From NCBI GenBank assembly GCA_963823335.1, contig CAWGLD010000001.1:1024001-1088000 (forward strand): a stretch of DNA of 64,000 nt, read 5' to 3'. The notes beneath the pieces were generated by a model that saw only the letters and a program-made list of their open reading frames with translations, had not been told where the DNA came from and searched no databases. Positions 2,668 through 63,814 of the stretch are shown in pieces. Made by a program: the position numbers and the translations under genes. Origin of the DNA: an uncultured delta proteobacterium. GTDB lineage: Bacteria; Desulfobacterota; Desulfobacteria; Desulfobacterales; B30-G6. The number at the start of each line of letters is the position of its first letter. The stretch's first letter is position 1.

Positions 2668-2976
2668 CGGAAAAAATTCAGTGATTTTATGCCAAACAAT
2701 ACGCTGAATCAGCGTGATGCCGCTTTCACCTAAGTGGCTTGTTTATATTTAGGTTTCAGGTAAAAAATTATCAACCCGACCAAGCATCCACATTAAAAGA
2801 CAACCGGTTTAAAATCAAGGCCAGAATTTTATTGTTTTCCGAGGTGTTCCGTGCGAGTCGACAATCAATGCTACGTTTTTATTTGTCAATTGAAGAAGAG
2901 GTGGTCTATATTGTGAGAACACCAGATCTTGGGATTGAGTACTACCGATCACAGGCGACACCACAAAGGAGAGAGG

Positions 2977-3483
2977 ATGGGGACAAAAGAACATAAAAAA
3001 GACACATTGAAAGTACTTAAGATAGCCATCATATCGGTGTCAAGTACACGAACGATCGCCGAAGATGACAGTGGTTTATGGATGAAGAAAAGGTCTGAAA
3101 AGGAAGGGCATACCGTCGTTTTGCACAGGGTTGTCCCGGATGACAAAAGACACATTGCAGCAGCTTTGTCTGAGGCTATCAAGCTGGCGGGTGCCCAGGC
3201 GATCTTGTTAACGGGGGGTACAGGCATCAGCAGTAAAGATGTGACCATTGAAGCTGTATCGCCCTTGTTTCAAAAAGAACTTACGGCCTTTGGACCTGTA
3301 TTTGCACAATTAAGTTTAGAAAAAATTGATTCCGCTGCCATTATGTCCCGTGCTACTGCTGGGATTGTCGGCAGGACGGCAGTTTTTTGCATGCCCGGCA
3401 GCCTCAGGGCCTGCAAGCTTGCCTGCAAGGCCTTAATTTTTCCAGAACTGGGGCATCTCCTCAAACACATATACCATGGTTAA
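2977..3483 (+). CDS. moaB: MoaB/MogA molybdopterin adenylyltransferase family
   Basis: VPDD, TGGTG...DVTIEA, SRATAG and FCMPGS motifs. ATG 2977 follows an AAGGAG RBS. Confidence 0.9.
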   Translation: MGTKEHKKDTLKVLKIAIISVSSTRTIAEDDSGLWMKKRSEKEGHTVVLHRVVPDDKRHIAAALSEAIKLAGAQAILLTGGTGISSKDVTIEAVSPLFQKELTAFGPVFAQLSLEKIDSAAIMSRATAGIVGRTAVFCMPGSLRACKLACKALIFPELGHLLKHIYHG

Positions 3484-47958: not shown

Positions 47959-50319
47959 ATGAATGAGCGCATTGAAAAACTTCGTGAAGAGAGTTTTCGT
48001 GCTGAACCCTGTATCTCCATTGAACGGGCATTGCTGGAAACGGCTTTTTATAAGCAAAACCTTGGTATGTATTCCATACCGGTCATGCGGGCTTTGGTCT
48101 TTAAACACCTATGCGAAAAGAAAACAGTGTATATCGGAGAAGGCGAACTCATCGTGGGCGAGCGTGGTCCTTTCCCCAAAGCCGTCTCCACCTTTCCGGA
48201 GCTGACCTGCCACACGGCGGAAGACCTCATGACCTTGAATGAACGGAAAATGACGCGCTTTTCCATATCAGAAAACGACATTCTTATATATGAACGGGAG
48301 GTCATTCCCTACTGGCGCGGAAAGAGTATGCGTGATCGCGTCTTCAACCAGGTACCAAAAGAATGGCAAGACGCGTATCGATCGGGTCTCTTTACCGAAT
48401 TCATGGAACAACGTGCCCCGGGCCATACAAGCCTCGATGGCATCATATACGAAAAGGGAATGCTCGATTTTAAGAAAGATATCCACCAGACACTTGTCGA
48501 ACTCGACTATCTCAACGATCCGGAGGCCACCGAAAAGGCCGAAGAATTGAAAGCCATGGATATTTCCTGTGATGCCGCCATTGTTTTTGCTGAAAGACAT
48601 GCATCCCTGGCAGATACCATGGCGGTCTCCGAAGCGGATCCTAAGAGAAAAGCAGAGCTGCAGCAGATTGCCAGGGTTTGCAGGCGGGTACCTGCACATG
48701 CGCCGCAAGATTTCTGGGAGGCGATCCAGATGTACTGGTTTGTTCACCTGGGTACGATAACCGAGTTGAATGGTTGGGATGCCATGAGCCCGGGTCACCT
48801 CGACCAGCACCTGTATCCTTTTTATCTGAGGGGACTGGACAAAAAAACATTGGATCGCGATACGGCAAAGGAACTTCTCAGTTGTCTCTGGATCAAGATC
48901 AACAACCATCCCGCTCCTCCCAAAGTAGGTGTTACCGCCAAAGAGAGTGGTACCTATAACGATTTTACCAACATCAATCTGGGCGGTCTCCTGCGAGACG
49001 GCAGTGATGGCGTCAACGAGGTCTCATACATTATACTGGAAGTGATCGAAGAGCTTCATTTACTTCAGCCCCAGAGCAATGTGCAGATCAGTGAAAAAAC
49101 ACCGGATCGGTTTCTCCAGAAAACCGGTCGAGTTATCCGCAAGGGTTTTGGATACCCATCGGTTTTTAATGCCGATGCGGTGGTGATGGAGCAGATGAGA
49201 GTCGGCAAAAGTATCGAGGATGCCAGGGAGGGCGGGTGTAGTGGATGTATCGAAACCGGTGCGTTTGGAAAAGAAGCCTATATCTTGACCGGTTATCTGA
49301 ATATTCCGAAGCTCCTTGAACTGGCCTTGCACAATGGCGTGGATCCGCTTACGGGGAAGTCCGTCGGTGTAGAGACCGGTGACCCGGTCACGTTTGAGAC
49401 GTTCGATGACCTGTATGAAGCTTTTGAGCGTCAGCTTTGTTACATTGTGGACCTGAAAATCCGGGTCAACAACTACATCGAACGCATGTTTGCAGTAAAT
49501 GCCCCGGCCCCGTTCTTGTCGGTGGTCATCAGGGACTGCATTAAAAATGGAAAAGATTATTACAACGGCGGACCCCGGTACAACACCAATTATATCCAGT
49601 GCTGTGGTATCGGCACTGTTACGGACAGCCTTTCGGCAATCAAAAAGCACGTTTTTGAAGAGAAAACACTTACCCTGGATGCATTGCTCGATGCACTGAA
49701 GCTCAATTTCAGGGATCAGGAAGCGCTCAGGCTGCGCCTGGTGAACAAAACACCTTTTTTCGGCAACGATGATGACCGCGCAGATACCATCATGCAGCGG
49801 GTATACGAGTCTCTTTTCAACGCCATTGACGGGAAACCCAACACCAAGGGAAGTTCATATCATCTGAACATGCTTTCCACCACGTGCCATATCTACTTTG
49901 GCAAGATGCTCGGCGCTACACCCAATGGCAGATTTGCTGAAAAACCCATTTCCGACGGCACGTCACCGTCCCACGGCGCAGACCGCCATGGGCCCACTGC
50001 GGTTATTAAATCACTTTCCAAAATGGATCAGATCAAATCCGGAGGAACTCTTCTGAACCAGCGGTTTTTACCCAGCGCGCTGGAAAAAGATGAAGATATT
50101 GTCAAACTCTGGCACCTTATTCGTACATATTTCAAGCTCAAGGGGCACCATATCCAGTTCAATATTGTTGGAACGGAAACCCTTAAAAAAGCCCAGGCAG
50201 CACCGGAGGACTACAGAGATCTACTGGTGCGAGTCGCCGGCTACAGCGACTATTTTGTTGATCTGGATGAATTTCATCAGGAAGAAATTATTGCACGGAC
50301 GGAAAACGAGGTACTTTAG
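47959..50319 (+). CDS. hypD: Glycyl radical enzyme, trans-4-hydroxy-L-proline dehydratase HypD-like
   Basis: FTEFMEQRAPGHT, WDAMSPG, PAPPKVG.T.KES.TY.DF, SGCIETG, LTGY, TTCHIYFG and RVAGYS match the HypD signature as I recall it. Confidence 0.85.
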   Translation: MNERIEKLREESFRAEPCISIERALLETAFYKQNLGMYSIPVMRALVFKHLCEKKTVYIGEGELIVGERGPFPKAVSTFPELTCHTAEDLMTLNERKMTRFSISENDILIYEREVIPYWRGKSMRDRVFNQVPKEWQDAYRSGLFTEFMEQRAPGHTSLDGIIYEKGMLDFKKDIHQTLVELDYLNDPEATEKAEELKAMDISCDAAIVFAERHASLADTMAVSEADPKRKAELQQIARVCRRVPAHAPQDFWEAIQMYWFVHLGTITELNGWDAMSPGHLDQHLYPFYLRGLDKKTLDRDTAKELLSCLWIKINNHPAPPKVGVTAKESGTYNDFTNINLGGLLRDGSDGVNEVSYIILEVIEELHLLQPQSNVQISEKTPDRFLQKTGRVIRKGFGYPSVFNADAVVMEQMRVGKSIEDAREGGCSGCIETGAFGKEAYILTGYLNIPKLLELALHNGVDPLTGKSVGVETGDPVTFETFDDLYEAFERQLCYIVDLKIRVNNYIERMFAVNAPAPFLSVVIRDCIKNGKDYYNGGPRYNTNYIQCCGIGTVTDSLSAIKKHVFEEKTLTLDALLDALKLNFRDQEALRLRLVNKTPFFGNDDDRADTIMQRVYESLFNAIDGKPNTKGSSYHLNMLSTTCHIYFGKMLGATPNGRFAEKPISDGTSPSHGADRHGPTAVIKSLSKMDQIKSGGTLLNQRFLPSALEKDEDIVKLWHLIRTYFKLKGHHIQFNIVGTETLKKAQAAPEDYRDLLVRVAGYSDYFVDLDEFHQEEIIARTENEVL

Positions 50320-53433: not shown

Positions 53434-54651
53434 TCAGGAAGTGCTTTTGTCTCGAGAAGCATCTTTAGGTAGTCCCAATACACGCTCGCCAATAATGTTG
53501 CGCTGAATTTCCGATGTCCCGGCTTCGATGGTATTTCCTTTTGACCTTAAAAACGCATACTGCCAGCTGCCGTTTTGAACTGACCAAGGGCCGCCGGTTA
53601 CCTGCCCGGCCGGGCCCTGCATGTCCATGGCAGCCTCGGTGATGCGTTGATTCGGCTCGCTCCATAAAAGCTTACCGATGGAGCCCTCCGGCCCCGGGAT
53701 TCCTGTTTTGATGTGACTGCTGAAATTTCGCAAGCCATGATATTTCAGGGCCATAATTTCTATGTAAGACTGGGCGATCTGTTGCCGGTACACGGGGTCT
53801 TCAATAACGGGCTTTCCCGAATTCTTGGTGGTTGCGGCCATGCGAATCAGTTTTTCAACATTTGTTTCATAGGCGGCGCTGATAACGACATCACCCATGG
53901 CACGCTCGAACATCAGTGTGGTGATGGCCATTTTCCACCCCTGCCCCTCTTCACCGATGAGACTGCTTACAGGCACCCGGACATTGTCAAAAAAGACTTC
54001 GTTAAATTCCGCTTCCCCGGTTATCTGTGTCATGGGCCTGGGATCGATACCTGGCAGGGACATGTCTACCAACAGATAGCTGAGTCCTTTGTGCTTTCGG
54101 GACTCCGGATCCGTGCGGACTACCAGAAGGCAGTAGTCTGCAAAGTGTGCCATGCTGGTCCAGACTTTCTGGCCGTTTACAATATAATCGTTCCCATCCC
54201 GTACAGCCATGGTTGAAACATTGGCTACATCGGAACCAGCGTCCGGCTCACTGAAACCCTGGCACCAAAGATGAGAGCCGTCGAGAATCTTTGGGATAAA
54301 TTTTTTCTTCTGATTCTCTGTTCCACAGAAATAGATGAGAGGAAGTGCCATGCCATGCGTGATGACGCCGGGCATGACCAGGGAGATACACCTTCGGCCC
54401 ATCTCCTGGGAGACAATCACCCCCTCCATGAGCGATCTACCCTGTCCGCCATAAGCTTTGTCGTAATGCATACCGGCATAACCTGCCTCGGACAGCTTTT
54501 TTTGAAAATCCCTGTAGGCGTCTCGGATCTTTTCGGGCTCCTTGAAGGTCGGTTGATTAAACGGATCCCAGCCACCCGGCAGGGTCTGATTTAGCCACTC
54601 CCGGAATTCCTGTCTGAAGGCCTCTTCGGCGGGTGTCAATCGAAAATCCAT
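53434..54651 (-). CDS. Acyl-CoA dehydrogenase, probable catalytic subunit of a heteromeric ACAD
   Basis: WCQGFSEPDAGSD, NGQKVWTS, FNEVFFDNV, TLMFER and TIEAGTSEIQRNIIGERVLGLP motifs. Confidence 0.92.
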   Translation of the reverse strand: MDFRLTPAEEAFRQEFREWLNQTLPGGWDPFNQPTFKEPEKIRDAYRDFQKKLSEAGYAGMHYDKAYGGQGRSLMEGVIVSQEMGRRCISLVMPGVITHGMALPLIYFCGTENQKKKFIPKILDGSHLWCQGFSEPDAGSDVANVSTMAVRDGNDYIVNGQKVWTSMAHFADYCLLVVRTDPESRKHKGLSYLLVDMSLPGIDPRPMTQITGEAEFNEVFFDNVRVPVSSLIGEEGQGWKMAITTLMFERAMGDVVISAAYETNVEKLIRMAATTKNSGKPVIEDPVYRQQIAQSYIEIMALKYHGLRNFSSHIKTGIPGPEGSIGKLLWSEPNQRITEAAMDMQGPAGQVTGGPWSVQNGSWQYAFLRSKGNTIEAGTSEIQRNIIGERVLGLPKDASRDKSTS

Positions 54652-54803
54652 AAAGTAGCTCCTTTGCTAAAGTGGGTCATCCCTTGGTTGGACAATTGTT
54701 TTTACTCATACCCGATTTATTTCTTTTGGTGCAATATGAAACTGAAGGACCCAACGACAAGCCACGGGGACTGCACTCGTTGTCTTGACGCTATGTTGTA
54801 ATA

Positions 54804-55748
54804 TCAGGGTTCCATGTGGCGGAGGGCTATCACTCGATCACCTCCCTGGCGTTTGGCCTCATACATGGCCACATCGGCCCGTTTAATAAAGGATTCGGTG
54901 GTTTCATTCTCTTCCAGCTGGGCCACACCGGCACTGAGTGTTACCGGCCTAAGATCCATGTCTTTATAGGTGATATCATATGGCCAATGTGCATTGAGAC
55001 TTGTCCTGATTTTTTCACCGGTTTGTTTTGCATTCTGTAATGAAGCTTCAGGCAGAAGAACGAAAAACTCGTCGCCGCCATATCGATATGCCGTATCAGA
55101 TTTTCGGACAATATCCAAAAGCAGTTTTCCAACGATTCGTAGAATGTTATCTCCTTCCAGGTGTCCCAACTGGTCGTTACAGTCCTTGAAATGATCCAGG
55201 TCAAAACAAATGAGGCTCAATGGGCGCTTGTACCTCATGGAACGTCCTATTTCTTTTGAAAGGGTAGAATAAAAATAGCGTTGATTGTAAAGACGGGTTA
55301 ACCCATCGGTTATGGAGAGTTGACGCAGCTTTTTTTCAACCTCTTTTTGGGGGCTCAAGTCATGAAAAAAGCCCACGCTGCCGATTTCTTCATTGTTATT
55401 GTAGATTAAGGCAGCGGAAAGACGTATGGGAACTTTCTTTCCGGCCTGTGTTTTAATCTCAATGCCATAGCCTTCTAGATATCCTTTGTCTCCGTACATG
55501 TCGGAATAGAGATGCCTTTTTATTTCTCTGGCAATCTCTGAAGAAGGATAAATCTCAATGATGTTTTTTTTGCCGATGGTTTTCCCGGCACTGTGACCGG
55601 TCAAAACTTCCGCGGCCCGGTTGAAAATGGTGATCAATCCGGAACGATTGATGGCAATAACGCCATCCGGACACAGAGCCACAAGGTTGACAAGAAATTC
55701 TTTTTCGTTTGATTGAATGTGTTGTAGGGAAACGATTTCCTCGCGCAT
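54804..55748 (-). CDS. PAS-GGDEF diguanylate cyclase
   Basis: PAS domain (FNRAAE.LTG), TDGLT.LYN, DLDHFK..ND..GH..GD, RKSD I-site and RYGGDEF. GGAGG RBS before 55748. Confidence 0.95.
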   Translation of the reverse strand: MREEIVSLQHIQSNEKEFLVNLVALCPDGVIAINRSGLITIFNRAAEVLTGHSAGKTIGKKNIIEIYPSSEIAREIKRHLYSDMYGDKGYLEGYGIEIKTQAGKKVPIRLSAALIYNNNEEIGSVGFFHDLSPQKEVEKKLRQLSITDGLTRLYNQRYFYSTLSKEIGRSMRYKRPLSLICFDLDHFKDCNDQLGHLEGDNILRIVGKLLLDIVRKSDTAYRYGGDEFFVLLPEASLQNAKQTGEKIRTSLNAHWPYDITYKDMDLRPVTLSAGVAQLEENETTESFIKRADVAMYEAKRQGGDRVIALRHMEP

Positions 55749-55775
55749 TCGACACCTCCATGTCAACAGATCAAA

Positions 55776-57005
55776 TCATTCAGAAAGATACTTATTCAGT
55801 TCTTCCTTGGGTATTCCCAGGCAGTAGAGCACATTTAGAAGCTGGTCATTGCTGAGCACGCCATCGGTCATGATACTCGGATTTTCAGGTTTCAACGCAA
55901 TAGAAAGGCCAACATTCTCAATGAAATGGGATGATTTAGAGCCATCTCCCACCGCAATGACCTGTTCCCTGCGGATGTTTTCATTCTGCATAATAAACTC
56001 GAGCAATTCTTCCTTGGTGTCGTTGGTAATAATGGGCTGCTCCAGGTTTCCAGTGAATACGCCGTTTTCGTCTATCTCAAGGGTATTTGAAAAAGCATAA
56101 TCCACGCCGGCGGTCTCAAAGATTCTTTTTATGAAAAAGTTGAATCCGGATGACAACAGGGCGATTTTAAAGCCCATGGATTTCAATATCTTGATAAGTT
56201 CAAAAGTTCCAGGATTCAACTGAAGGATATCAACATATTTTTTAAGATCATCGGCAGATAATCCTTTCAGTCTTTTGGCATTGTAAACCAGCGCTTCCAT
56301 CTGGCCGGCAATTATCTCTCCCGGCCTGGAAACATCGGTTTCCGGTCGCATTCTTCCATTGATTGTCTTAATAAATTTTTTGAGGGAAACCCGTTGTACC
56401 AGACTGGATTCAACATCAAATACGACCAGTTTCTTACTTCTTTGATAAATATTTCCACTTTGAATTACCACACTCTGATCTATTTCAGTACATAGTTTTT
56501 TCAGGTCGGATTTCATCTTCTTGATGCAGGCATCATGGGACATTTCAGGGGTGTCATTCATTGTGCTGGTATCGATGATCACCTCCATGGAAAAGAAAGC
56601 ACCCCGGGCGATCATTCGGCACTTTTCAATGGCAATTCGATAGCTGTGAAACAGGCTCGATACCTTGGCGATAATACCCGGTTGATCAACACCGATGATG
56701 GTTACAAGATGGCTTTCGTGTTGGGATGGCAAAAAGGATGTCTTGTCATCATAGCGGTCGAGAATGATTTTGATACCGGTCTTTTCCTGGATCGCTTTCA
56801 ACCTTGAAATGATATGCGCTATGGTGTGTTTTGATGACGAGAAATCAATCACAAGAAAAATAGAAAACAGACCTCGTCTGCAATTCTCTTCAACATCTAC
56901 GATGTTGCCGTCCATTTCGAATATGGTATTCGTAATTAACGCAAACAAGCCGGGCGTATAGGGTCCAACGGCAGATACGCTGATCAGTTTTTGTTTTGTT
57001 TTCAT
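55776..57005 (-). CDS. SerB-like ACT-ACT-HAD protein with degenerate active-site motifs
   Basis: Two ACT domains (GPYTPGL, GVDQPGII) then a HAD domain reading VFDVESSLV, LLSSGF, K and GDGSKS. Confidence 0.8.
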   Translation of the reverse strand: MKTKQKLISVSAVGPYTPGLFALITNTIFEMDGNIVDVEENCRRGLFSIFLVIDFSSSKHTIAHIISRLKAIQEKTGIKIILDRYDDKTSFLPSQHESHLVTIIGVDQPGIIAKVSSLFHSYRIAIEKCRMIARGAFFSMEVIIDTSTMNDTPEMSHDACIKKMKSDLKKLCTEIDQSVVIQSGNIYQRSKKLVVFDVESSLVQRVSLKKFIKTINGRMRPETDVSRPGEIIAGQMEALVYNAKRLKGLSADDLKKYVDILQLNPGTFELIKILKSMGFKIALLSSGFNFFIKRIFETAGVDYAFSNTLEIDENGVFTGNLEQPIITNDTKEELLEFIMQNENIRREQVIAVGDGSKSSHFIENVGLSIALKPENPSIMTDGVLSNDQLLNVLYCLGIPKEELNKYLSE

Positions 57006-57895
57006 TGAGAACCCTTTTGTTTTGAGCTGAAAAAAACGAACAGCTCTTCTTCATAGTAGCGGCCATCGATAATCTGACCAGGTCCGAACCGCCGCATCTG
57101 TTTTGCCTGCAAGAACCTTTCGAATCGTTGGTTGATTTCTTTCAGAGAAATGTTCTCATTAAGCCAATACCCTGGGAAATTGACATTAAGAGGTCTGGCA
57201 GGAATTACGTGACGGGTTGTTTTGGGTGCAAATATTTTTCTTTTCTTTGCGGAGGCGATGACGATTTTTTTGGTCAGTATAGGTGTCCAAACGACGGCTT
57301 GGTTGGCATTCAATTTCTGGCAAAACTGTTCTGTGTGAACCGCAGTGCAAGGAATATAGTCCAGGGATATCTGCATGGATATCAATTGTTGCTGAATTTG
57401 ATGCAGCAGATCGAATGTCGCCACCGCATCCCGCGATAAGCACTTCGGGAATTCTATAAAAATGCAGTCATCTGTCCGTTGAATGCCGCACGCATCCGTG
57501 TTGGCCTCCAGGGCCTCCATCAGTGATGATTTGTTTGGAACTGGATGGAGACGGCATCCTAATGATTCAAAGGTATTTCTAATGATATCGAAATTTGAAA
57601 TGTGCCCGAGCAGCCTGAACCAGCGTCGCAATTTTGTGTTGTCATTCAGGTAGTCTATTTTACAAACAGGAATATATCTTAAGTTCAAGGCATTGAAAAC
57701 ATAGGTCCGGTGGTTTCCATCCAGGACCACATGATTTTCATCGACAATGATCGGGTTTTGAAGATGTGCGAGGTTCTTAAACTCATAGGTAAGCTTAACG
57801 GCTTTTTGCGGAAGGATCCGTTCATGTTGCAACAGTGTTTTAACCGGCACAACTTCCAGTTCCAATCTTAATGTGTTTGTTTTGATACAATACAT
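57002..57895 (-). CDS. SerK/SbnI-like free serine kinase (ParB/Srx fold)
   Basis: LLQHE, NPIIV, VLDGNHR, IDY...W and FAPKTTRHVIP parallel the archaeal SerK motifs as I recall them (PHE, IVDGHHR, FSPKTTRHVLP). Confidence 0.78.
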   Translation of the reverse strand: MYCIKTNTLRLELEVVPVKTLLQHERILPQKAVKLTYEFKNLAHLQNPIIVDENHVVLDGNHRTYVFNALNLRYIPVCKIDYLNDNTKLRRWFRLLGHISNFDIIRNTFESLGCRLHPVPNKSSLMEALEANTDACGIQRTDDCIFIEFPKCLSRDAVATFDLLHQIQQQLISMQISLDYIPCTAVHTEQFCQKLNANQAVVWTPILTKKIVIASAKKRKIFAPKTTRHVIPARPLNVNFPGYWLNENISLKEINQRFERFLQAKQMRRFGPGQIIDGRYYEEELFVFFSSKQKGSQ

Positions 57896-58042
57896 TTTTT
57901 AAGAAAGACCTTGATTCTGTCCGGGTCTGTAATGGCAGATAGATCCATACGTAACAGCACAAGTATACCAGGCTGCTATCGGAGAGAAATGGATGCATTT
58001 TGCCGGTAAGCGGCAATGTTGCCTCAAATAGCATCGCAAAGG

Positions 58043-58072
58043 AGTTTATTGAATCATCGCCGATGATGTCAA
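58043..58072 (-). promoter_or_regulatory. Sigma70-like promoter with an operator-like palindrome
   Basis: Minus strand TTGACA-18 nt-TAAACT. ATCATCG-N-CGATGAT (58053-58067) fills the spacer. Confidence 0.5.
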
Positions 58073-58092
58073 ATAGAAATTATCTGGGCGGG

Positions 58093-59376
58093 CTAGGCGG
58101 CCCTGCTAGTATGCTTTGCAGGCCTCATCGTGTCAGGCTCAAAGTTCAAAGTGGCAAAATAATCTTCGACATGTTCTTCCCTTCGAATCAACGCGACGGT
58201 TCCGTCTGCGCAAAGCAGGAGCTCTTTTGGTCGCAACCGTCCGTTGTAGTTGAATCCCATGGAGTAGCCATGTGCCCCGGTATCGTGTATACAAAGAATA
58301 TCTCCTGCATCGATATCCGGAAGACGTCGCTGAATGGCGAACTTGTCGTTGTTTTCACAAAGGGACCCCACCACATCGACCTTTTTATCGTTTTCAGTTG
58401 CACGTTTTCCGAGAATATCGATGTGGTGATAGGCGCCGTATATGGCAGGACGCATGAGGGATGACATGGAAGCGTCCACACCGATATAGGTGCGATAAAT
58501 ATCCTTTCGGTTTATGGCACTTGTCACCAGCACACCGTGAGGTCCGGTAATGTAGCGACCGCTTTCCATATAGAGTCTGGGAACATATCCGTTTCTGTCT
58601 TTGAACGAAATAAAAAGCGTTGTAATAGCTGCGGCCATCTCTTTCAGATTCAAAGGCGTTTCCGACGGGTGATAGGGTATTCCGAGGCCGCCCCCCATGT
58701 TGACAAATTCAAATCGTTGGCCAAGAGCGCCTGACAGTGTTTCCACGGTTTCCAACAGCATCTGAACCGTATGGATCATGTAGTCATGGTTCAATTCGTT
58801 GGATGCCAGCATGGTATGAATTCCCAGTTTTTTAGCGCCCCTTTGAATGGCCATCTGATATGCCTGGCATAACTGGGTGGAACTGACCCCATATTTGGAC
58901 TCGAGTGGATCACCGATGATGTTGTTCCCGGTTCTTTTTGCTCCGGGATTGTATCGGAAACTGATCCGCTCCGGCATCTGTGGTACCTTGGAGACCAGAG
59001 AAATATCGTCGAGATTCAAGATGCATCCACCACCGGATGCCGCCTTTTCAAACTCTGTGGTACTGGTGTTGTTGGATGTAAACATGATATCTTCCCCACG
59101 CGACCCGATCTTGCGGCTAAGCAACAGTTCAGGAACGGAACTGCAGTCGAAACCGAACCCAAGATCTTTTAATATCCTGAGTATGCGCGGGTTGGGTAGC
59201 GCCTTTACAGCATAATATTCCCGGAATAGATCAATTTCCGAAAATGCAGCTATCAGGTCTGTGCCTGTTTCCTGGATGCCCTTTGCGTCATACAGGTGGA
59301 AGGGGGTGCCAAAGTGGTTTACAATATCTTTCAGCAAGGGGAAAAGCCGGTTTTTGAATGATGCCGACATGGGCAT
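58093..59376 (-). CDS. lysA: Diaminopimelate decarboxylase
   Basis: GTPFHLYD, YAVKA (PLP lysine), SKYG, GGGLG, ESGRY, GSLCENND and GAHG.SMGFNYN motifs. Confidence 0.92.
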   Translation of the reverse strand: MPMSASFKNRLFPLLKDIVNHFGTPFHLYDAKGIQETGTDLIAAFSEIDLFREYYAVKALPNPRILRILKDLGFGFDCSSVPELLLSRKIGSRGEDIMFTSNNTSTTEFEKAASGGGCILNLDDISLVSKVPQMPERISFRYNPGAKRTGNNIIGDPLESKYGVSSTQLCQAYQMAIQRGAKKLGIHTMLASNELNHDYMIHTVQMLLETVETLSGALGQRFEFVNMGGGLGIPYHPSETPLNLKEMAAAITTLFISFKDRNGYVPRLYMESGRYITGPHGVLVTSAINRKDIYRTYIGVDASMSSLMRPAIYGAYHHIDILGKRATENDKKVDVVGSLCENNDKFAIQRRLPDIDAGDILCIHDTGAHGYSMGFNYNGRLRPKELLLCADGTVALIRREEHVEDYFATLNFEPDTMRPAKHTSRAA

Positions 59377-59466
59377 GGTTGTATCTCTCCTCTCTCACAA
59401 ATTTCCAGGATAGCGTCTGGGCGTTTCGACCCCGCCCGAACTGCATTCTGATATACATGGGTGTGG

Positions 59467-60690
59467 CTAAAACAGGGCTGATTTAATGCGATCCATGGCA
59501 ATGGCCACATTTTCATAATTGTTAAAGGCACTGATTCTGACAAAGCCCTCACCACACAGCCCAAAACCTGCTCCAGGGGTGCAGACGACACCGGCTTTAT
59601 CCAGAAGCAGATCAAAGAATTCCCATGATTTTCGCTGACAGTCGACCCAGATATAAGGAGAATTGACACCTCCGATACAGATAAACCCCATTTTTGTTAT
59701 TTCTTTTAATATCAGTGCAGCGTTCTGCAGGTAATAATCAATCAATATACGGGTTTGTTGCCTTCCTTCAGGACTGTAGACAGCCTCGGCAGCTTTTTGG
59801 ACCGGATACGAGACACTGTTGAACTTTGTTGTGTGCCTGCGATTCCACAGATCGTTCAGCGAACAGGATTCACCGCTCTCGGTATAGGCGGTGCAGTCTT
59901 TGGGCACCACGGTATAAGCGCAACGGGTACCGGTAAATCCAGCTGTTTTAGAAAAGCTCCTGAACTCAATGGCAACTTGCCGGGCACCTTCGATTTCAAA
60001 TATCGATCTGGGGAGGGTGTCGTCCCGGATAAACGCCTCATAAGCGGCATCGTATAATATCAAAGCACGATGGTCTCTTGCATACGCGACCCATTCACGT
60101 AATTGCTCTTTGGTAATCACGGCACCCGTTGGGTTGTTTGGGTAACATAGGTATATCAAGTCCACTGATGTTGACGGCAGCCGGGGCACAAACCCGTTTT
60201 CCTGACGACATTCCAGATAGGTGATGCCTTCATACCTGCCTTCATGATAAGGCCCGGTACGGCCCGCCATAACATTGGTGTCTACATAAACGGGATATAC
60301 GGGATCCGGGATCGCCACCGTGATATTTTGGGAGAAAATTTCTTGAATGTTACCGGTGTCACATTTGGCACCGTCACTGATAAAGATTTCGTTGGCCTGG
60401 ATATCGGCACCATATTTCTGAAAGTCCTCTTTGGCAATGATTTCCCGTAAGAACGGATACCCCTGTTCAGGACCATATCCTCGAAATGTATGGTCGTGTG
60501 CCATTTCATCGACAGCCAGGTGAAGGGCCTGAATACAGGCTTTTGGCAATGCCCGGGTCACATCGCCGATTCCCAGTTTGATAATTTCTTTGGTCGGGTT
60601 TTCCGCTTGGTGCTGATTTACCCGCCTGGCTATTTCGGCAAATAAGTAAGATGATTGCAGTTTTTGGTAGTTTTCGTTGATTCGGATCAT
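59467..60690 (-). CDS. dapL: LL-diaminopimelate aminotransferase
   Basis: SYLF, LGIGDVT, GYGPEQG, SDGAKCD, PNNPTG, DAAY and [13 protein letters not shown] motifs. Confidence 0.96.
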
Positions 60691-60805
60691 ATGCCACCTC
60701 TCGTTTATATGAGTTTAACTTTAGTTTTCTGCGCAGTGTGGTAATAATGCTGCCTTGCTGAATCCAATGACCCTGTCCGTCTGAGTTGTGCGGGGAAAAA
60801 TCAGC

Positions 60806-61273
60806 TTAGGCGATATCATGGGTGTCTATCGGAATTCGTGCTGTTTCTTTGAAGGTAGACATGACAATGGCGGTATGGGTCTTTTTTACATCTGCTATCC
60901 TGAGAATTTTATCCTGGATAAGTTTGCCCAGTTCCGCGACATCGGAAACACGGACCTTCACTAAAAAACCGTCTTCCCCCGTAATATGGTGAACCTCCTG
61001 AATTTCAGGAATCGCTGTGAGCCGCTTGCCTGTCAGGGCCACACTCTCGCGGGAACTTGTGACGACGGTAATAAACGCAACCAGATTTCGTTTGAATTTT
61101 TCAGGGTTCAGGCGGACTTCATACCCATCGATAAACCCTTTTTGTTCAAGCTTACGGATTCGTTCCAATACTGCAGACGGTGCCATATCGACCTGTCTTG
61201 CAACTTCTACGTTCGGAATTCTGGCCTTTGTTTGTAATATCTTCAGTATTTTTAAACTTATTTCGTCTAACAT
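60806..61273 (-). CDS. Lrp/AsnC family transcriptional regulator
   Basis: LDE...KIL.ILQ..ARI, AVLERIRKLE..G.I.GY and VHHITGE motifs. Confidence 0.95.
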   Translation of the reverse strand: MLDEISLKILKILQTKARIPNVEVARQVDMAPSAVLERIRKLEQKGFIDGYEVRLNPEKFKRNLVAFITVVTSSRESVALTGKRLTAIPEIQEVHHITGEDGFLVKVRVSDVAELGKLIQDKILRIADVKKTHTAIVMSTFKETARIPIDTHDIA

Positions 61274-61561: not shown

Positions 61562-61999
61562 ATGAAATTTTTCAAAAGCAGAGAAAATCGCGGCAACCTG
61601 ATGGTGTGTTACGAAGATACCGATGTTTCCAAGGAAACCTTAAAGCTTGCCCAGAAATATGCCAAGGCGTGGCAGGTTGCCGTAGATGTCGTCTCCTCCT
61701 TTAAAAGAGAAGAACCGCTGGCGATATCTGAGGTAAGAGGAATGGAGGATGCCTTCCAGATCCAGATTAAGGAACAATTCACCAATAGCGATATCCCATA
61801 CCGTGCCCACCTGCTCGTGGATATCTATTCACCCGGAGAACAACTGGTTACGTTTTCCGAGGGCAAAGACTATGAATTCATCTTTATCGGGATATCCAAA
61901 AGATCAAAAGTCGGAAAACTTCTGTTCGGATCCACTGCGCAGTATATCATTTTAAATGCACCTTATCCGGTAATAACTGTTAACGGATTAAGCCGCTAG
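61562..61999 (+). CDS. Universal stress protein
   Basis: IFIGISKRSKVGKLLFGSTAQYIILNAPYPVITV motif. Confidence 0.93.
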   Translation: MKFFKSRENRGNLMVCYEDTDVSKETLKLAQKYAKAWQVAVDVVSSFKREEPLAISEVRGMEDAFQIQIKEQFTNSDIPYRAHLLVDIYSPGEQLVTFSEGKDYEFIFIGISKRSKVGKLLFGSTAQYIILNAPYPVITVNGLSR

Positions 62000-62341
62000 C
62001 TTCGGAGGTTGAGCATGAACCCTTTCTCCCAGCTAATTGGGAGAAGAGCCTCTTTTATTATCCGTGTCAACTTATCACAACCACCCCATAGACAGGTCTT
62101 TTCATGATCATTTCTTCAAGCCACAAAGCTACAGCTGATGGATAATGTTCAGTGGTCTCCTGTAAATATGTTATCGACTGTGTCAGGTTTGGATTGCTTT
62201 CTTTGAATTAAATGTATATGAAGCAGCATTTGCGACATTGTTCCATTATCTCAGAATTGACCAATGCTCACTGAAAACCGTGTGTTTTTGAACGTTTCAT
62301 AAGAAAACAGATATGGGTTTCCATAAAAAGGAAATACTATC

Positions 62342-63814
62342 ATGGACTCGTTCGATACGGCTATTCATTTTCCCCACCTTCGAGTTTTATCGGATGATCA
62401 ACTTCGCAATATCTATCGGGCAACATTGAGCTGTCTGCAGCGAACAGGTGTTGAGGTTCACAACCAGGAAGCAAGAGAGCTTCTATACGATGCCGGTGCG
62501 GACATCGATGATCATCGCGTTCGTATCCCCTCTCATGTTATTGAAACCATTCTGAACGATGTGCCTAAAACGTTTACGATCTATGGTCAAAATCAAAAAT
62601 GGGATATGTTGATTGAATCAGGTCAGGTCAGATATGGAACAGGGCCGACCTGTACCTATTTCATGGATCCAGAAACCGGAAAAAAACACAAGACCCAAAA
62701 AAGCGACCCGGCCCTTACTGCTCTGGTTTGTGGTGCATTGGAAAATATAGATTATGTAATGTCCCTTGGACTGATAGACAATGTCACATCCACTTTGGCC
62801 TCTGTCCACGAGTTTGCCCAAATGATCACCCACACAGGCAAGCCGATTCTTGGCTGGGCTTTCAAGAAAGACCATCTCGAGGACATTTATAAAATTGCTT
62901 CCGCCGTTTCAGGAAGCGAAGAGGCTTTTCAGCTGCGACCCAATTTCGGCTTCTTTTCTACCTGGCAGGCACCTCTGGCGCATATGGATGAGGATCTGAG
63001 CAACTGTCTGTGGGCCCTGGAGAGGAATATTCCGATCATATATATCGGTGGCGGAGTGGCGGGGTTAACTGCGCCGGTAACTGGCGCCGGTCTCCTGGTT
63101 TCCAACCTTGCCAGCATGCTCAGCGGCATGGCCATATTTCAACTGAAGAAACCGGGGGCGCCCGTTTGCCTGGGCGCAGTTCCAGCACCCATGGATCTTC
63201 GTACCGCACGGATGGCCTATGGCGGACCCGAAATGAGTCTGTACTCTGCAGCGCTTTCAGAGATCACGCAATTTCTAAATATTCCCTTTATGGGGACTGC
63301 CGGCGCATCAGAATCCAAGGTAATGGATCTTCAGGCTGCCATCGAAAGCACTTTTCAAGTGGTACTGTCGCAGATGAGCAAAGCCAATATGGTACATGAT
63401 GTTGGCTTTCTCGACTGTGCCGATATTGGTTCACTTGAAATGCTGGTGATGACCGATGAGATCATTTCCCAGGCAAAACGGATTACCAGGGGTATAGAGG
63501 TTAGCGAGGAAACCTTGATGCTTGATCTCATCGATGAGGTAGGGACCAAAGGCAGTTTTATTGCAACCCCGCAAACGGCCAGGCGATGCCGGGAGGAAAT
63601 TTATACATCCGACCTGATGGATCGAAATGCATGGGCAACCTGGCAGGAAAGCGGTGCCAAAACCATGCTGGAGCGGGTACAAGAGAAACTTGCTGACATT
63701 CTATCCCAGCCTCCTTCAATTCAACTGTCTAGTGACGTCCTCGATCGTATATCGGGGATAATCCAGGCGGCTGAACAAAGAGAAGGTATTTTTCTTTTTG
63801 AAAACACAGGGTAA
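62342..63814 (+). CDS. MttB-superfamily (non-pyrrolysine) methylamine:corrinoid methyltransferase
   Basis: LSDDQL..I..A.L..L..TGV, APVT.AG.L, MDLRT...YGGPE, D.QAA.E, HDVGFLD and LV..DEI motifs. No in-frame TAG. Confidence 0.9.
   Translation: MDSFDTAIHFPHLRVLSDDQLRNIYRATLSCLQRTGVEVHNQEARELLYDAGADIDDHRVRIPSHVIETILNDVPKTFTIYGQNQKWDMLIESGQVRYGTGPTCTYFMDPETGKKHKTQKSDPALTALVCGALENIDYVMSLGLIDNVTSTLASVHEFAQMITHTGKPILGWAFKKDHLEDIYKIASAVSGSEEAFQLRPNFGFFSTWQAPLAHMDEDLSNCLWALERNIPIIYIGGGVAGLTAPVTGAGLLVSNLASMLSGMAIFQLKKPGAPVCLGAVPAPMDLRTARMAYGGPEMSLYSAALSEITQFLNIPFMGTAGASESKVMDLQAAIESTFQVVLSQMSKANMVHDVGFLDCADIGSLEMLVMTDEIISQAKRITRGIEVSEETLMLDLIDEVGTKGSFIATPQTARRCREEIYTSDLMDRNAWATWQESGAKTMLERVQEKLADILSQPPSIQLSSDVLDRISGIIQAAEQREGIFLFENTG

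Follow-up and report, generated by a model that had tools for sequence, protein, structure and literature searches.

A SerK-like protein and an altered SerB paralogue encoded as a conserved gene pair in Desulfobacterota: a possible module of glycine and serine metabolism

Organization of the locus

The window, that is, the whole stretch of DNA that was analysed, covers 64,000 nucleotides of contig CAWGLD010000001.1 (assembly GCA_963823335.1) from an uncultured delta proteobacterium. Three co-oriented genes of its minus strand are the subject of this study (Table 1): a SerK-like gene, whose product is called K here, a SerB-like gene (product H) and a gene for a diguanylate cyclase. A first-pass annotation made from the letters of this DNA had noted their common orientation, the overlap of the K stop with the H start and a 27-nt spacer behind H, and all three are present in the sequence. 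The H stop is the TGA at 55778-55776 and the likely start of the cyclase is the ATG at 55748, 27 nt past that stop and just behind a GGAGG. The motifs that had been read in the kinase are found in the translation of K as well (HE at residues 24-25, DGNHR at 59-63, PKTTRH at 224-229). As had also been noted, the cyclase has an intact GGDEF, and its RxxD I-site (RKSD) lies five residues upstream of it; the protein matches PF00990 with 147 bits (cut-off 23.8) and carries a PAS domain in addition, so that it has the features of a GGDEF diguanylate cyclase.

Table 1. Features of the K-H locus, in positions of the window
Feature	Positions	Strand	Basis or remark
K, SerK-like ParB/Srx-fold protein, 297 aa	57002..57895	-	ORF list and translation
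H, ACT-ACT-HAD(IB) SerB2-type paralogue, 409 aa	55776..57005	-	ORF list and translation, domain models
PAS-GGDEF diguanylate cyclase with RxxD I-site, 320 aa from a TTG start	54804..55766	-	
ATGA overlap of K stop and H start, translational coupling	57002..57005	-	sequence
Intergenic region 5' of K, 197 nt	57896..58092	-	candidate sigma-70-like site inside

Upstream of K, a sigma-70-like site (TTGACA, 18 nt, TAAACT) was seen at 58072-58043. It is a mere candidate, since the scanned region held 6 promoter-like sites where 6.4 were expected from shuffled sequence. The same scan gave 4 terminator-like sites (3.1 in the shuffles), and no obvious terminator was seen in it between the K, H and cyclase genes. 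In the window genome the pair sits after dapL-lysA. The group dapL-lysA-lrp was considered as a part of the system and rejected: some genomes of the genus lack lysA or have it truncated, and outside family f1 the group does not occur.

A distant SerK homologue and an altered SerB paralogue

The first-pass annotation had called K a SerK-like serine kinase, and HMM and structure comparisons establish it as a distant, full-length homologue of SerK and SbnI. K matched the NCBIfam SerK equivalog model NF053625 over model positions 15-238 of 244 (E 5.8e-15), at 55.1 bits against a curated cut-off of 380, which leaves it outside the equivalog. No Pfam family, DUF1015 included, matched K at E<=0.01, and no HTH was recognisable in it. 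A profile of the K family aligned with PDB 1vk1 and 5x0b over nearly the whole chain (E 2e-12 and 4e-11, respectively) with HE, DGxHR and PKTTRH in register, so that Glu25 of K falls on Glu30 of SerK and DGNHR on DGHHR. PDB entry titles of SerK name E30A and E30Q mutants; the roles of SerK residues beyond E30 are presumed here. Among 23 relatives of K the three motifs are invariant or nearly so, and the catalytic Glu and the nucleotide motif are invariant. The AlphaFold model of K (pLDDT 86.9) had SbnI and SerK as its best Foldseek matches, with E-values from 1.6e-12 to 1e-10. By profile, fold and the 23 relatives, K has the ParB/Srx-type fold, the catalytic Glu and the DGxHR of the SerK/SbnI kinases, and it is a putative free-serine kinase of this type, with serine as its presumed substrate.

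Similar to the ADP-dependent SerK (T. kodakarensis PDB 5x0b and related entries, P. furiosus 1vk1), K has two domains in a ParB/Srx-type fold and shares the HE with catalytic Glu30, DGxHR and PKTTRH, but identity in structural alignments is only about 16-17%. Unlike SerK, K is bacterial, is paired with a SerB paralogue and has a C-terminal extension of about 55 residues when compared with the 242-residue solved SerK chains. At the head of the structural matches of the K model stood SbnI, the free-serine kinase and regulator in staphyloferrin B synthesis of Staphylococcus (PDB 5uje, 6nr6), with E 1.6e-12 and a TM-score by target of 0.65-0.67. The N-terminal domains of SbnI and K are also alike in sequence, but this likeness is confined to residues about 10-81; the SbnI matches stop short of PKTTRH, a region of K that aligns with SerK. 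In addition K, unlike SbnI, has no siderophore gene context.

H consists of two ACT domains followed by a HAD-IB domain (Pfam matches to ACT_6, ACT_4 and HAD), which is the SerB2-type architecture of about 400 residues. It is collinear over its full length with the genome's own canonical SerB (405 aa, 33% identity), and the mycobacterial SerB2 proteins, ACT-ACT-PSP phosphoserine phosphatases (PDB 3p96, 5is2, 5jlp), have the same three domains and length. M. avium SerB2 3p96 was the best PDB match (E 2.7e-27), in an alignment spanning ACT2 and the HAD domain. AlphaFold modelled H with a pLDDT of only 69, and this model was left out of the fold search, since the sequence match to SerB2 was already clear. 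H scored 73.8 bits on the HAD-IB model TIGR01488 (cut-off 45), 108.8 bits on the SerB model TIGR00338, below its cut-off of 144.15, and 26.8-27.8 bits on the ThrH model NF010109, far from its cut-off of 133. The canonical SerB encoded elsewhere in the genome reaches 263.6 bits on the SerB model and has DCDST and GDGAND.

The difference between H and SerB lies in the motifs. SerB2 and the genome's own SerB carry DxDST and GDGAND, whereas the H family has DxE(S/T) and GDGSxxSHF, in H itself DVESS (D197-V-E199) and GDGSKSSHF. The Asp+2 position, the general acid/base in the SerB motif DxDx(T/V), is thus Glu, and it is so in 68/68 relatives. The nucleophile D197 is equally fixed (68/68), the motif II residue S285 is Ser in 64 and Thr in 3, the motif III residue K331 is Lys in 65 and Arg in 2, and the first Asp of motif IV, D354, is kept in 64/66, as HAD-IB proteins require, but the Asn and Asp positions of motif IV vary among the 68. 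The equivalent of Glu20 of M. jannaschii PSP is variable and that of Arg56 is Asn in 53/68; we take both PSP residues to bind the serine moiety. H appears, then, to keep the Mg- and phosphoryl-binding core and to have lost the residues that recognise serine. As a whole it is conserved at least as well as K: mean pairwise identity was 56.2% for H and 52.8% for K, with H higher in 201 of 253 pairs. Within H the HAD core is the best-conserved part (columns 75-80% identical) and the cap domain the least (48.5%).

The first-pass annotation had described this SerB as crippled. Its premise that H is not a normal phosphatase agrees with the score below the SerB cut-off and with the loss of DxD and GDGxND, and a canonical SerB is encoded elsewhere. 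The word itself is probably too strong, for the phosphoryl and Mg core is kept, DxE is fixed and the ThrH homologue of the genome has a DxE as well. H could be either a regulator or an active phosphotransferase, and its family should not be annotated as SerB.

K and H are predicted to bind each other. The model of the complex passed its controls, with a score of 0.71 where the best control had 0.37; 58 of 80 solved complexes and 2 of 110 mismatched pairs attained the mark used for this score, counts that are only rough because our own alignments were used. The runs agreed in at least 84% of contacts, and the partners had pLDDT values of at least 83. The predicted interface joins residues 237 and 268-291 of K with 283-308, 322-324 and 337-341 of H, away from both active sites. 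The residues involved are not confined to the pair: archaeal relatives of K, whose loci have no H within 5 kb, conserve the C-terminal extension too, and the interface strand of H, VDYAFSN, has a counterpart in canonical SerB, LDYVFAN.

These features bear on what we see as the most serious competitor of a regulatory role, although on balance an unlikely one, namely that H is an active, ThrH-like HAD enzyme. It would form phospho-Asp197 and hand its phosphoryl group on to an acceptor, or else hydrolyse some phospho-compound that is not phosphoserine, and K and H would make up a kinase-phosphotransferase relay. ThrH of Pseudomonas aeruginosa, a phosphoserine phosphatase and phosphoserine:homoserine phosphotransferase, is reported to be catalytically active through a presumed phospho-enzyme, according to the passages of PMC1079889 on which we draw. 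Like H it is a HAD-IB protein whose motif I has Glu in the Asp+2 position, to judge from the genome's homologue (NF010109, 297.3 bits, cut-off 133), which reads DMEG there. Several features would suit an active enzyme: the four catalytic positions are kept in 64-68 of 66-68 relatives of H, Glu is fixed at Asp+2, no first-shell phosphoryl or Mg ligand has been lost, and conservation peaks in the HAD core. Against this, the Asn-Asp of motif IV is absent in H and kept in ThrH (GDSYND), the score on the ThrH model is low, H has variable residues or Asn in place of the presumed serine-binding Glu and Arg of M. jannaschii PSP, the cap is the least conserved domain, and the predicted interface keeps the two active sites apart. 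ThrH also differs in having no ACT domains and in adjoining homoserine dehydrogenase.

Linkage of K and H and the place of the cyclase

H lies directly downstream of K in 15/15 loci of a first set and in 74/80 loci of a wider one (73 complete, 1 cut by a contig end), the latter drawn from MAGs labelled Desulfobacterales, Desulfobacteraceae, Desulfatiglandales or deltaproteobacteria. The loci were collected by alignment-based scans; a single-protein pattern scan gave only 6 close relatives and 2 spurious Rhizobiales matches. In these relatives the tblastn match to H begins 0-313 nt past the end of the K match, mostly less than 60 nt. In 401 genomes sampled from the phylum, K was matched strongly (E 1e-84 or better) in only three (G000, G140 and G260), and H at E<=1e-70 in the same three. 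Nine genomes with weaker K matches (E 1e-6 to 1e-8, 28-33% identity over about 80-115 residues) were left out of the counts, and these matches were treated as other ParB-fold proteins. K and H therefore form a real unit, and the pairing of kinase and SerB-like gene that had been proposed from one sequence is conserved.

K was found without H, despite room downstream, in 5/80 loci, and no H-type match was present anywhere in 4 of those 5 genomes, which are MAGs and possibly incomplete; K can thus apparently work alone. The bacterial K clade comprises 661 clusters at 90% identity (E<=0.001, among 1000 candidates). A search with a wider K profile returned 128 representative clusters at E<=1e-30; when 80 loci were retrieved with this profile, 79 proved to be archaeal. 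H was within 5 kb of the archaeal K relatives in 0/80 loci; they lay near a seryl-tRNA synthetase gene in 17/80 and near a ThiS-like gene in 14/80.

The third gene behaves differently. A cyclase follows H in 6/80 loci, all of them from the genus of the window and none from outside it. Even within the genus, six of the nine other genomes keep the trio, down to 61% K identity, and three (L038, L039, L068) lack the cyclase and have acyl-CoA dehydrogenase genes directly after K-H. The first-pass annotation had read K, H and the PAS-GGDEF protein as one serine/phosphoserine-sensing pathway with c-di-GMP as its output. Its co-oriented trio with a 27-nt spacer, the lack of a terminator-like site between the genes and the retention of the trio in most of the genus agree with such a reading. 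So do RNA-library contigs that span both junctions, K-H (X12 record 6, X15 record 16) and H-GGDEF (X15 record 12, X17 record 19), but a two-gene contig is no proof of a single transcript and RNA libraries may hold DNA. The cyclase gene may be co-transcribed with K-H in the window genome. Nevertheless, a cyclase present in 6/80 loci and absent from three genomes of the genus means that c-di-GMP output is not part of the conserved system, and the cyclase has a PAS input domain of its own; we consider the proposed pathway quite improbable and its trio not a conserved one. The cyclase is a genus-specific downstream neighbour, a local add-on, whose gene was probably inserted behind the pair at the base of the genus.

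Glycine-cleavage context and a metabolic reading of the pair

What surrounds the pair in other genomes points elsewhere. A GcvT-SHMT fusion gene lies immediately upstream of K in 39/80 loci, and the other genes found in the 80 loci include Lrp (33), GcvH (17), GcvP (15) and Lpd (13), with a class-V aminotransferase after H in 9. These neighbours argue for metabolism rather than signalling, and the context, together with the SerRS and ThiS-like genes near the archaeal relatives, is suggestive of serine phosphorylation by K. In the window genome the pair stands apart from the GcvT-SHMT cluster, which sits at 388-393 kb of contig C1. The genome encodes SerC (474 bits, cut-off 443.6). An Fe-S serine dehydratase is present too, with two SDH_alpha genes; the idea that a phosphoserine route is obligatory for want of a serine dehydratase was therefore dropped, and such a route is not needed for serine catabolism.

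We favour, at a probability of about one half, the reading that K and H make up a conserved module of two proteins that serves glycine/serine metabolism, not c-di-GMP signalling, with H most likely a non-hydrolysing regulatory or ancillary subunit. K would convert serine, typically supplied by the adjoining GcvT-SHMT fusion and the glycine-cleavage proteins, into O-phosphoserine, which would yield 3-phosphoglycerate via SerC and SerA or feed phosphoserine-dependent reactions. H, a SerB2-type duplicate, would bind the C-terminal extension of K through its HAD core and use its tandem ACT domains as sensors of an amino acid, for instance serine or glycine; K could in this way avoid a futile cycle with the true SerB.

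The flux might also run the other way. K would then make serine and ADP or ATP from phosphoserine and AMP or ADP, an energy-saving replacement of SerB as proposed for the DUF1015 protein 'SerBK', and H would be a relic or a modulator. Like K, SerBK is a remote SbnI-like putative serine kinase, tied to serA/serC and to serine synthesis and use, and its family is reported to complement an E. coli serB mutant (GapMind 2026, PMC13759103); SerK, for its part, has been tied to both cysteine biosynthesis and serine metabolism (PMC5120207). However, SerBK belongs to a different family, K having no Pfam match to DUF1015 or otherwise, and the passages of PMC13759103 used here describe for it neither a SerB-like partner nor a glycine-cleavage context and call the reverse reaction thermodynamically unfavourable. 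The genome moreover keeps a full canonical SerB, and a site behind a serine-forming GcvT-SHMT fusion fits serine consumption better, so that we hold a reverse-running K to be quite improbable. Least probable of all, and hardly to be expected, is that the pair regulates the glycine-cleavage genes in whose clusters it is located, with K as a ParB-fold DNA-binding regulator such as SbnI also is (NCBIfam calls it a 'bifunctional transcriptional regulator/O-phospho-L-serine synthase') and H as a ligand sensor with tandem ACT domains like GcvR. In favour of this stands a weak match of the two ACT domains of H to the glycine-cleavage repressor model NF008612 (E 8.6e-5), but its 22 bits are far short of the cut-off of 267. 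Moreover, neither an HTH nor any other Pfam domain is recognisable in K, its catalytic Glu and nucleotide motif are invariant, and in 33/80 loci the clusters already come with an Lrp/AsnC regulator of their own.

The reading of K and H as a metabolic module can be carried further, into a proposal that we regard as speculative and rather unlikely in its full form. The K-H complex would be the committed step of an undescribed 'phosphoserine exit' from the glycine-cleavage/SHMT (reductive glycine) route in sediment Desulfobacterota, in which serine made by the GcvT-SHMT fusion passes through K, SerC and SerA to 3-phosphoglycerate and bypasses the activation of pyruvate to PEP. H would be a neofunctionalised SerB that gates the kinase by amino acids or carries a phosphoryl group on Asp197 by means of its ThrH-like Asp-x-Glu site.

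The first-pass annotation knew of no description of its arrangement, and we likewise found none in print for the K-H pair; the supplements of bioRxiv papers and of a ParB-fold survey (PMC12704722), which lay outside the search, could list such neighbourhoods. The pair looks like an undescribed metabolic module. Clear-cut homologues of SerK were not found in bacteria according to the part of the SerK paper that we cite (PMC5120207), and free-serine kinases are known from few organisms only; the K clade would add bacterial relatives to them. In this bacterial clade a putative kinase is paired with a copy of the enzyme that would reverse its reaction, the phosphoserine phosphatase, and the copy bears a fixed change in its active site. 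If the favoured reading is true, it would be a natural combination of a kinase with a phosphatase paralogue put to a new use, situated where C1/glycine and central carbon metabolism meet in sulfate reducers that are abundant in sediments, and it would bear on the entry into gluconeogenesis of serine that stems from glycine cleavage or from the reductive glycine pathway.

The SerK-like gene and its locus

The first-pass annotation had read three genes as a candidate serine/phosphoserine-sensing system with c-di-GMP output: a SerK-like kinase (here K), a SerB paralogue of ACT-ACT-HAD architecture (H) and a diguanylate cyclase. All three are co-oriented ORFs as described (Table), with the K stop overlapping the H start as ATGA and the cyclase ATG 27 nt past the H stop. 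The cyclase has PAS and GGDEF domains (147 bits), and its RxxD I-site reads RKSD, five residues ahead of GGDEF. The kinase motifs were likewise recovered in K as HE, DGNHR and PKTTRH.

Table. Positions of the genes discussed (window numbering unless a locus or contig is named; L-numbers, fetched loci; C1, contig of the window's own genome, G000)
Feature	Position	Strand	Remarks
K	57002-57895	-	ORF, 297 aa
H	55776-57005	-	ORF, 409 aa; stop TGA at 55778-55776
Cyclase	54804-55766	-	ORF, 320 aa; ATG at 55748 preceded by GGAGG
LL-diaminopimelate aminotransferase, LysA-like decarboxylase, Lrp/AsnC regulator	58093-61273	same as K	upstream of K
PFL-like glycyl-radical enzyme; MttB-family methyltransferase	47959-50319 and 62342-63814		flank the region
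Second GGDEF gene of relatives	L039:12391-12912, L040:3352-3873 and similar		between Usp and MttB genes
GcvT-SHMT fusion	L123:141-2795; own genome C1:388547-391192		
ThrH homologue	L142:1405-2118 (G000:C1, about 1759.4-1760.1 kb)		directly downstream of homoserine-dehydrogenase-like gene
Archaeal 'long' SerK-like proteins	loci L146-L225; e.g. L146:2063-2926 and 2975-3274		

The NCBIfam SerK model matches K over nearly its full length (E 5.8e-15), at 55 bits and thus far below the equivalog cut-off of 380. A profile of 23 K relatives matched the solved SerK 5x0b (E 4e-11) and the P. furiosus SerK homologue 1vk1 (E 2e-12). In the profile alignment, SerK Glu30 falls on K Glu25, DGHHR on DGNHR, and F/Y-S-PKTTRH-VLP on F-A-PKTTRH-VIP; titles of the matched SerK PDB entries name E30A and E30Q mutants. 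The best PDB folds for the AlphaFold model of K (pLDDT 86.9) were SbnI and SerK (E 1.6e-12 to 1e-10), so that the SerK assignment holds for K as a distant relative. SerK chains have 242 residues without a C-terminal extension, whereas K carries one of about 55 residues. According to the SerK paper, bacteria yielded no clear-cut homologues (PMC5120207). The Pfam scan gave no match for K, and the recently proposed DUF1015 'SerBK' is a separate family (PMC13759103).

The stretch holding the K-H pair has a G+C content of 0.42-0.44 against 0.49-0.53 on either side; over the K-H-GGDEF block (54500-58000) it is 0.42-0.46, below the acyl-CoA dehydrogenase genes (0.51-0.53) and the dapL-lysA genes (0.48-0.49) of the flanks. 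Such a difference would fit a block that was relocated or acquired. In the window's genome the pair sits behind dapL-lysA (TIGR03542, 585 bits, for the aminotransferase; 297.3 bits for the LysA-like decarboxylase, just under its cut-off of 297.9). Some members of the genus lack lysA or have a truncated copy (L040, L041, L043). The PFL-like and MttB genes of the flanks hint that this organism may break down quaternary amines or C1 compounds.

Linkage of K, H and the cyclase

K was found in 13 of the 14 other genomes of the window's family; few genomes from the rest of the order and phylum carry it. H follows K at 15/15 loci fetched from those genomes. At 80 further K loci, taken from MAGs that carry the labels Desulfobacterales, Desulfobacteraceae, Desulfatiglandales or deltaproteobacteria, H stands behind K in full at 73 and cut by the contig end at one. 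One locus leaves no room for H and five have room yet lack it; one of these five genomes has H on another contig, and none was found in the other four, whose being MAGs leaves its absence unproven. When 401 genomes were sampled across the phylum, the three with strong K matches were also the three with H matches at E<=1e-70.

The trio is not conserved. The GGDEF gene stands behind H at 6 of the 15 and 6 of the 80 loci, the same species in both; these all belong to the window's genus and have K identities as low as 60-61%. Three genomes of this genus (L038, L039 and L068) carry acyl-CoA dehydrogenase genes directly after K-H. Since the gene is confined to the genus and missing from these members, it is a genus-level insertion, later lost in some. 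With the cyclase so restricted, c-di-GMP as the output of the K-H system is unsupported, and signalling of this kind, as a lineage-specific add-on, is very improbable. The terminator scan found no terminator-like site between the three genes, and estuary RNA-library contigs span the K-H junction (X12 record 6, X15 record 16) and the H-GGDEF junction (X15 record 12, X17 record 19); such contigs are no proof of a single transcript, and RNA libraries can contain DNA. In the window's species the cyclase may share a transcript with K-H. Several relatives have another GGDEF gene, unrelated to this one and with 36-46% identity to the GGDEF domain; at the matching window position (61999-62342) no ORF of at least 80 aa is listed.

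H as an altered SerB2 paralogue and predicted partner of K

H has two ACT domains and one HAD-IB domain, and its best match is mycobacterial SerB2 (3p96, E 2.7e-27). The canonical SerB (405 aa) encoded elsewhere in the same genome is collinear with H and 33% identical; its motifs are DCDST and GDGAND, and its TIGR00338 score is 263.6 bits (cut-off 144.15), against 108.8 bits for H. Motif I of H reads D197-V-E199-S-S and motif IV G-D354-G-S-K-S-S-H-F. In the 68 family members compared, neither Asp197 nor Glu199 varies, the motif II position is Ser in 64 and Thr in 3, the motif III position is Lys in 65 and Arg in 2, the first motif IV Asp is kept in 64/66, and the motif IV Asn-Asp is variable. 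The positions matching Glu20 and Arg56 of M. jannaschii PSP, which we take to bind the serine moiety, are variable or Asn. Mean pairwise identity is 56.2% for H and 52.8% for K (H higher in 201/253 pairs), and within H the HAD core is best conserved (75-80% column identity) and the cap least (48.5%). H is not a gene in decay; it represents an old variant of the SerB2 active site that has become fixed.

The ThrH homologue of the same genome (NF010109, 297 bits, cut-off 133) also has Asp-x-Glu in motif I, DMEG. Since ThrH is described as acting both as phosphoserine phosphatase and as phosphotransferase (PMC1079889), Glu at Asp+2 alone does not prove a dead enzyme. 'Crippled', the first-pass annotation's word for H, is too strong. 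In the main alternative, which we regard as rather unlikely, H would be an active enzyme, either a phosphotransferase of the ThrH kind or a phosphatase acting on a new substrate. The ThrH homologue, placed directly behind a homoserine-dehydrogenase-like gene, suggests that threonine synthesis here may take phosphoserine as phosphoryl donor. The tandem ACT region of H (residues 3-190) weakly matches the model of the glycine-cleavage repressor GcvR, NF008612 (E 8.6e-5, 22 bits, cut-off 267), from which the ACT pair might sense glycine.

The predicted K-H complex scored 0.71 (best control 0.37), a mark reached by 58/80 solved complexes and 2/110 mismatched pairs, counts that are only rough because our own alignments were used. 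Contacts agreed by at least 84% between runs, with partner pLDDT of at least 83. The predicted interface joins the K extension (237, 268-291) to the H HAD core (283-308, 322-324, 337-341), excludes the K catalytic residues (25, 59-63, 224-229) and near motif II of H touches residue 283 alone. Caution is needed, as archaeal relatives that have no H conserve the extension too and the H strand VDYAFSN also occurs in canonical SerB. The PDB sequence and profile searches gave no single entry matching both proteins, and we know of no solved SerK-SerB complex.

Glycine and serine context

Neighbouring ORFs were clustered and scanned with Pfam and NCBIfam. The commonest neighbour of K-H is an 885-aa GcvT + SHMT-like fusion, immediately upstream of K at 39 of the 80 loci; its GcvT part passes the NCBIfam cut-offs and its SHMT-like domain is divergent (238.6 bits, cut-off 335). 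No description of it was found in the accessible literature. Lrp/AsnC (33 loci), GcvH (17), GcvP (15) and lipoamide dehydrogenase (13) recur as well, an AGXT/BhcA-like class-V aminotransferase directly follows H at 9, and one locus (L050) carries a SerA-like dehydrogenase. The window's own genome has the fusion-Lrp-GcvH-GcvP cluster at C1:388-393 kb, apart from K-H.

A K profile search of 1.84 billion representatives gave 128 clusters at E<=1e-30, and distant full-length members likewise carry the C-terminal extension. Of 80 loci fetched with a distant-member profile, 79 are archaeal by label, mostly Bathyarchaeia, Hadarchaeota, Asgard lineages and Desulfurococcaceae. No H or SerB gene lies within 5 kb at any of the 80; among the genes that recur there are those for seryl-tRNA synthetase (17), a ThiS/Urm1-like protein (14) and class-V aminotransferase (8). 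Within the superfamily, only the Desulfobacterota clade pairs K with H. The archaeal ThiS/Urm1-like and seryl-tRNA synthetase neighbours recall sulfur-carrier, phosphoserine-dependent cysteine synthesis. The recurrent neighbours of the whole superfamily thus point to serine and phosphoserine chemistry.

The full-text literature search turned up no account in which a SerK-like gene has a SerB paralogue as partner or stands in glycine-cleavage clusters; the main text of a ParB-fold survey mentions SerK merely as a known example (PMC12704722). That K runs in reverse is very improbable, and that K-H is a regulator pair even more so. The reading we favour, at about even odds (roughly 0.5) as a whole and with biochemical steps that we infer throughout, is that free serine leaving a glycine-to-serine module would be phosphorylated by K. 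H, a repurposed SerB2 duplicate, would be bound to K as a subunit with a regulatory or ancillary role and no hydrolytic activity, and the cyclase would be a passenger. The ACT domains of H would sense an amino acid, which, as we propose, would keep K from cycling futilely against the true SerB. With SerC and Fe-S serine dehydratases also encoded in the genome, the phosphoserine route would be one exit among others.
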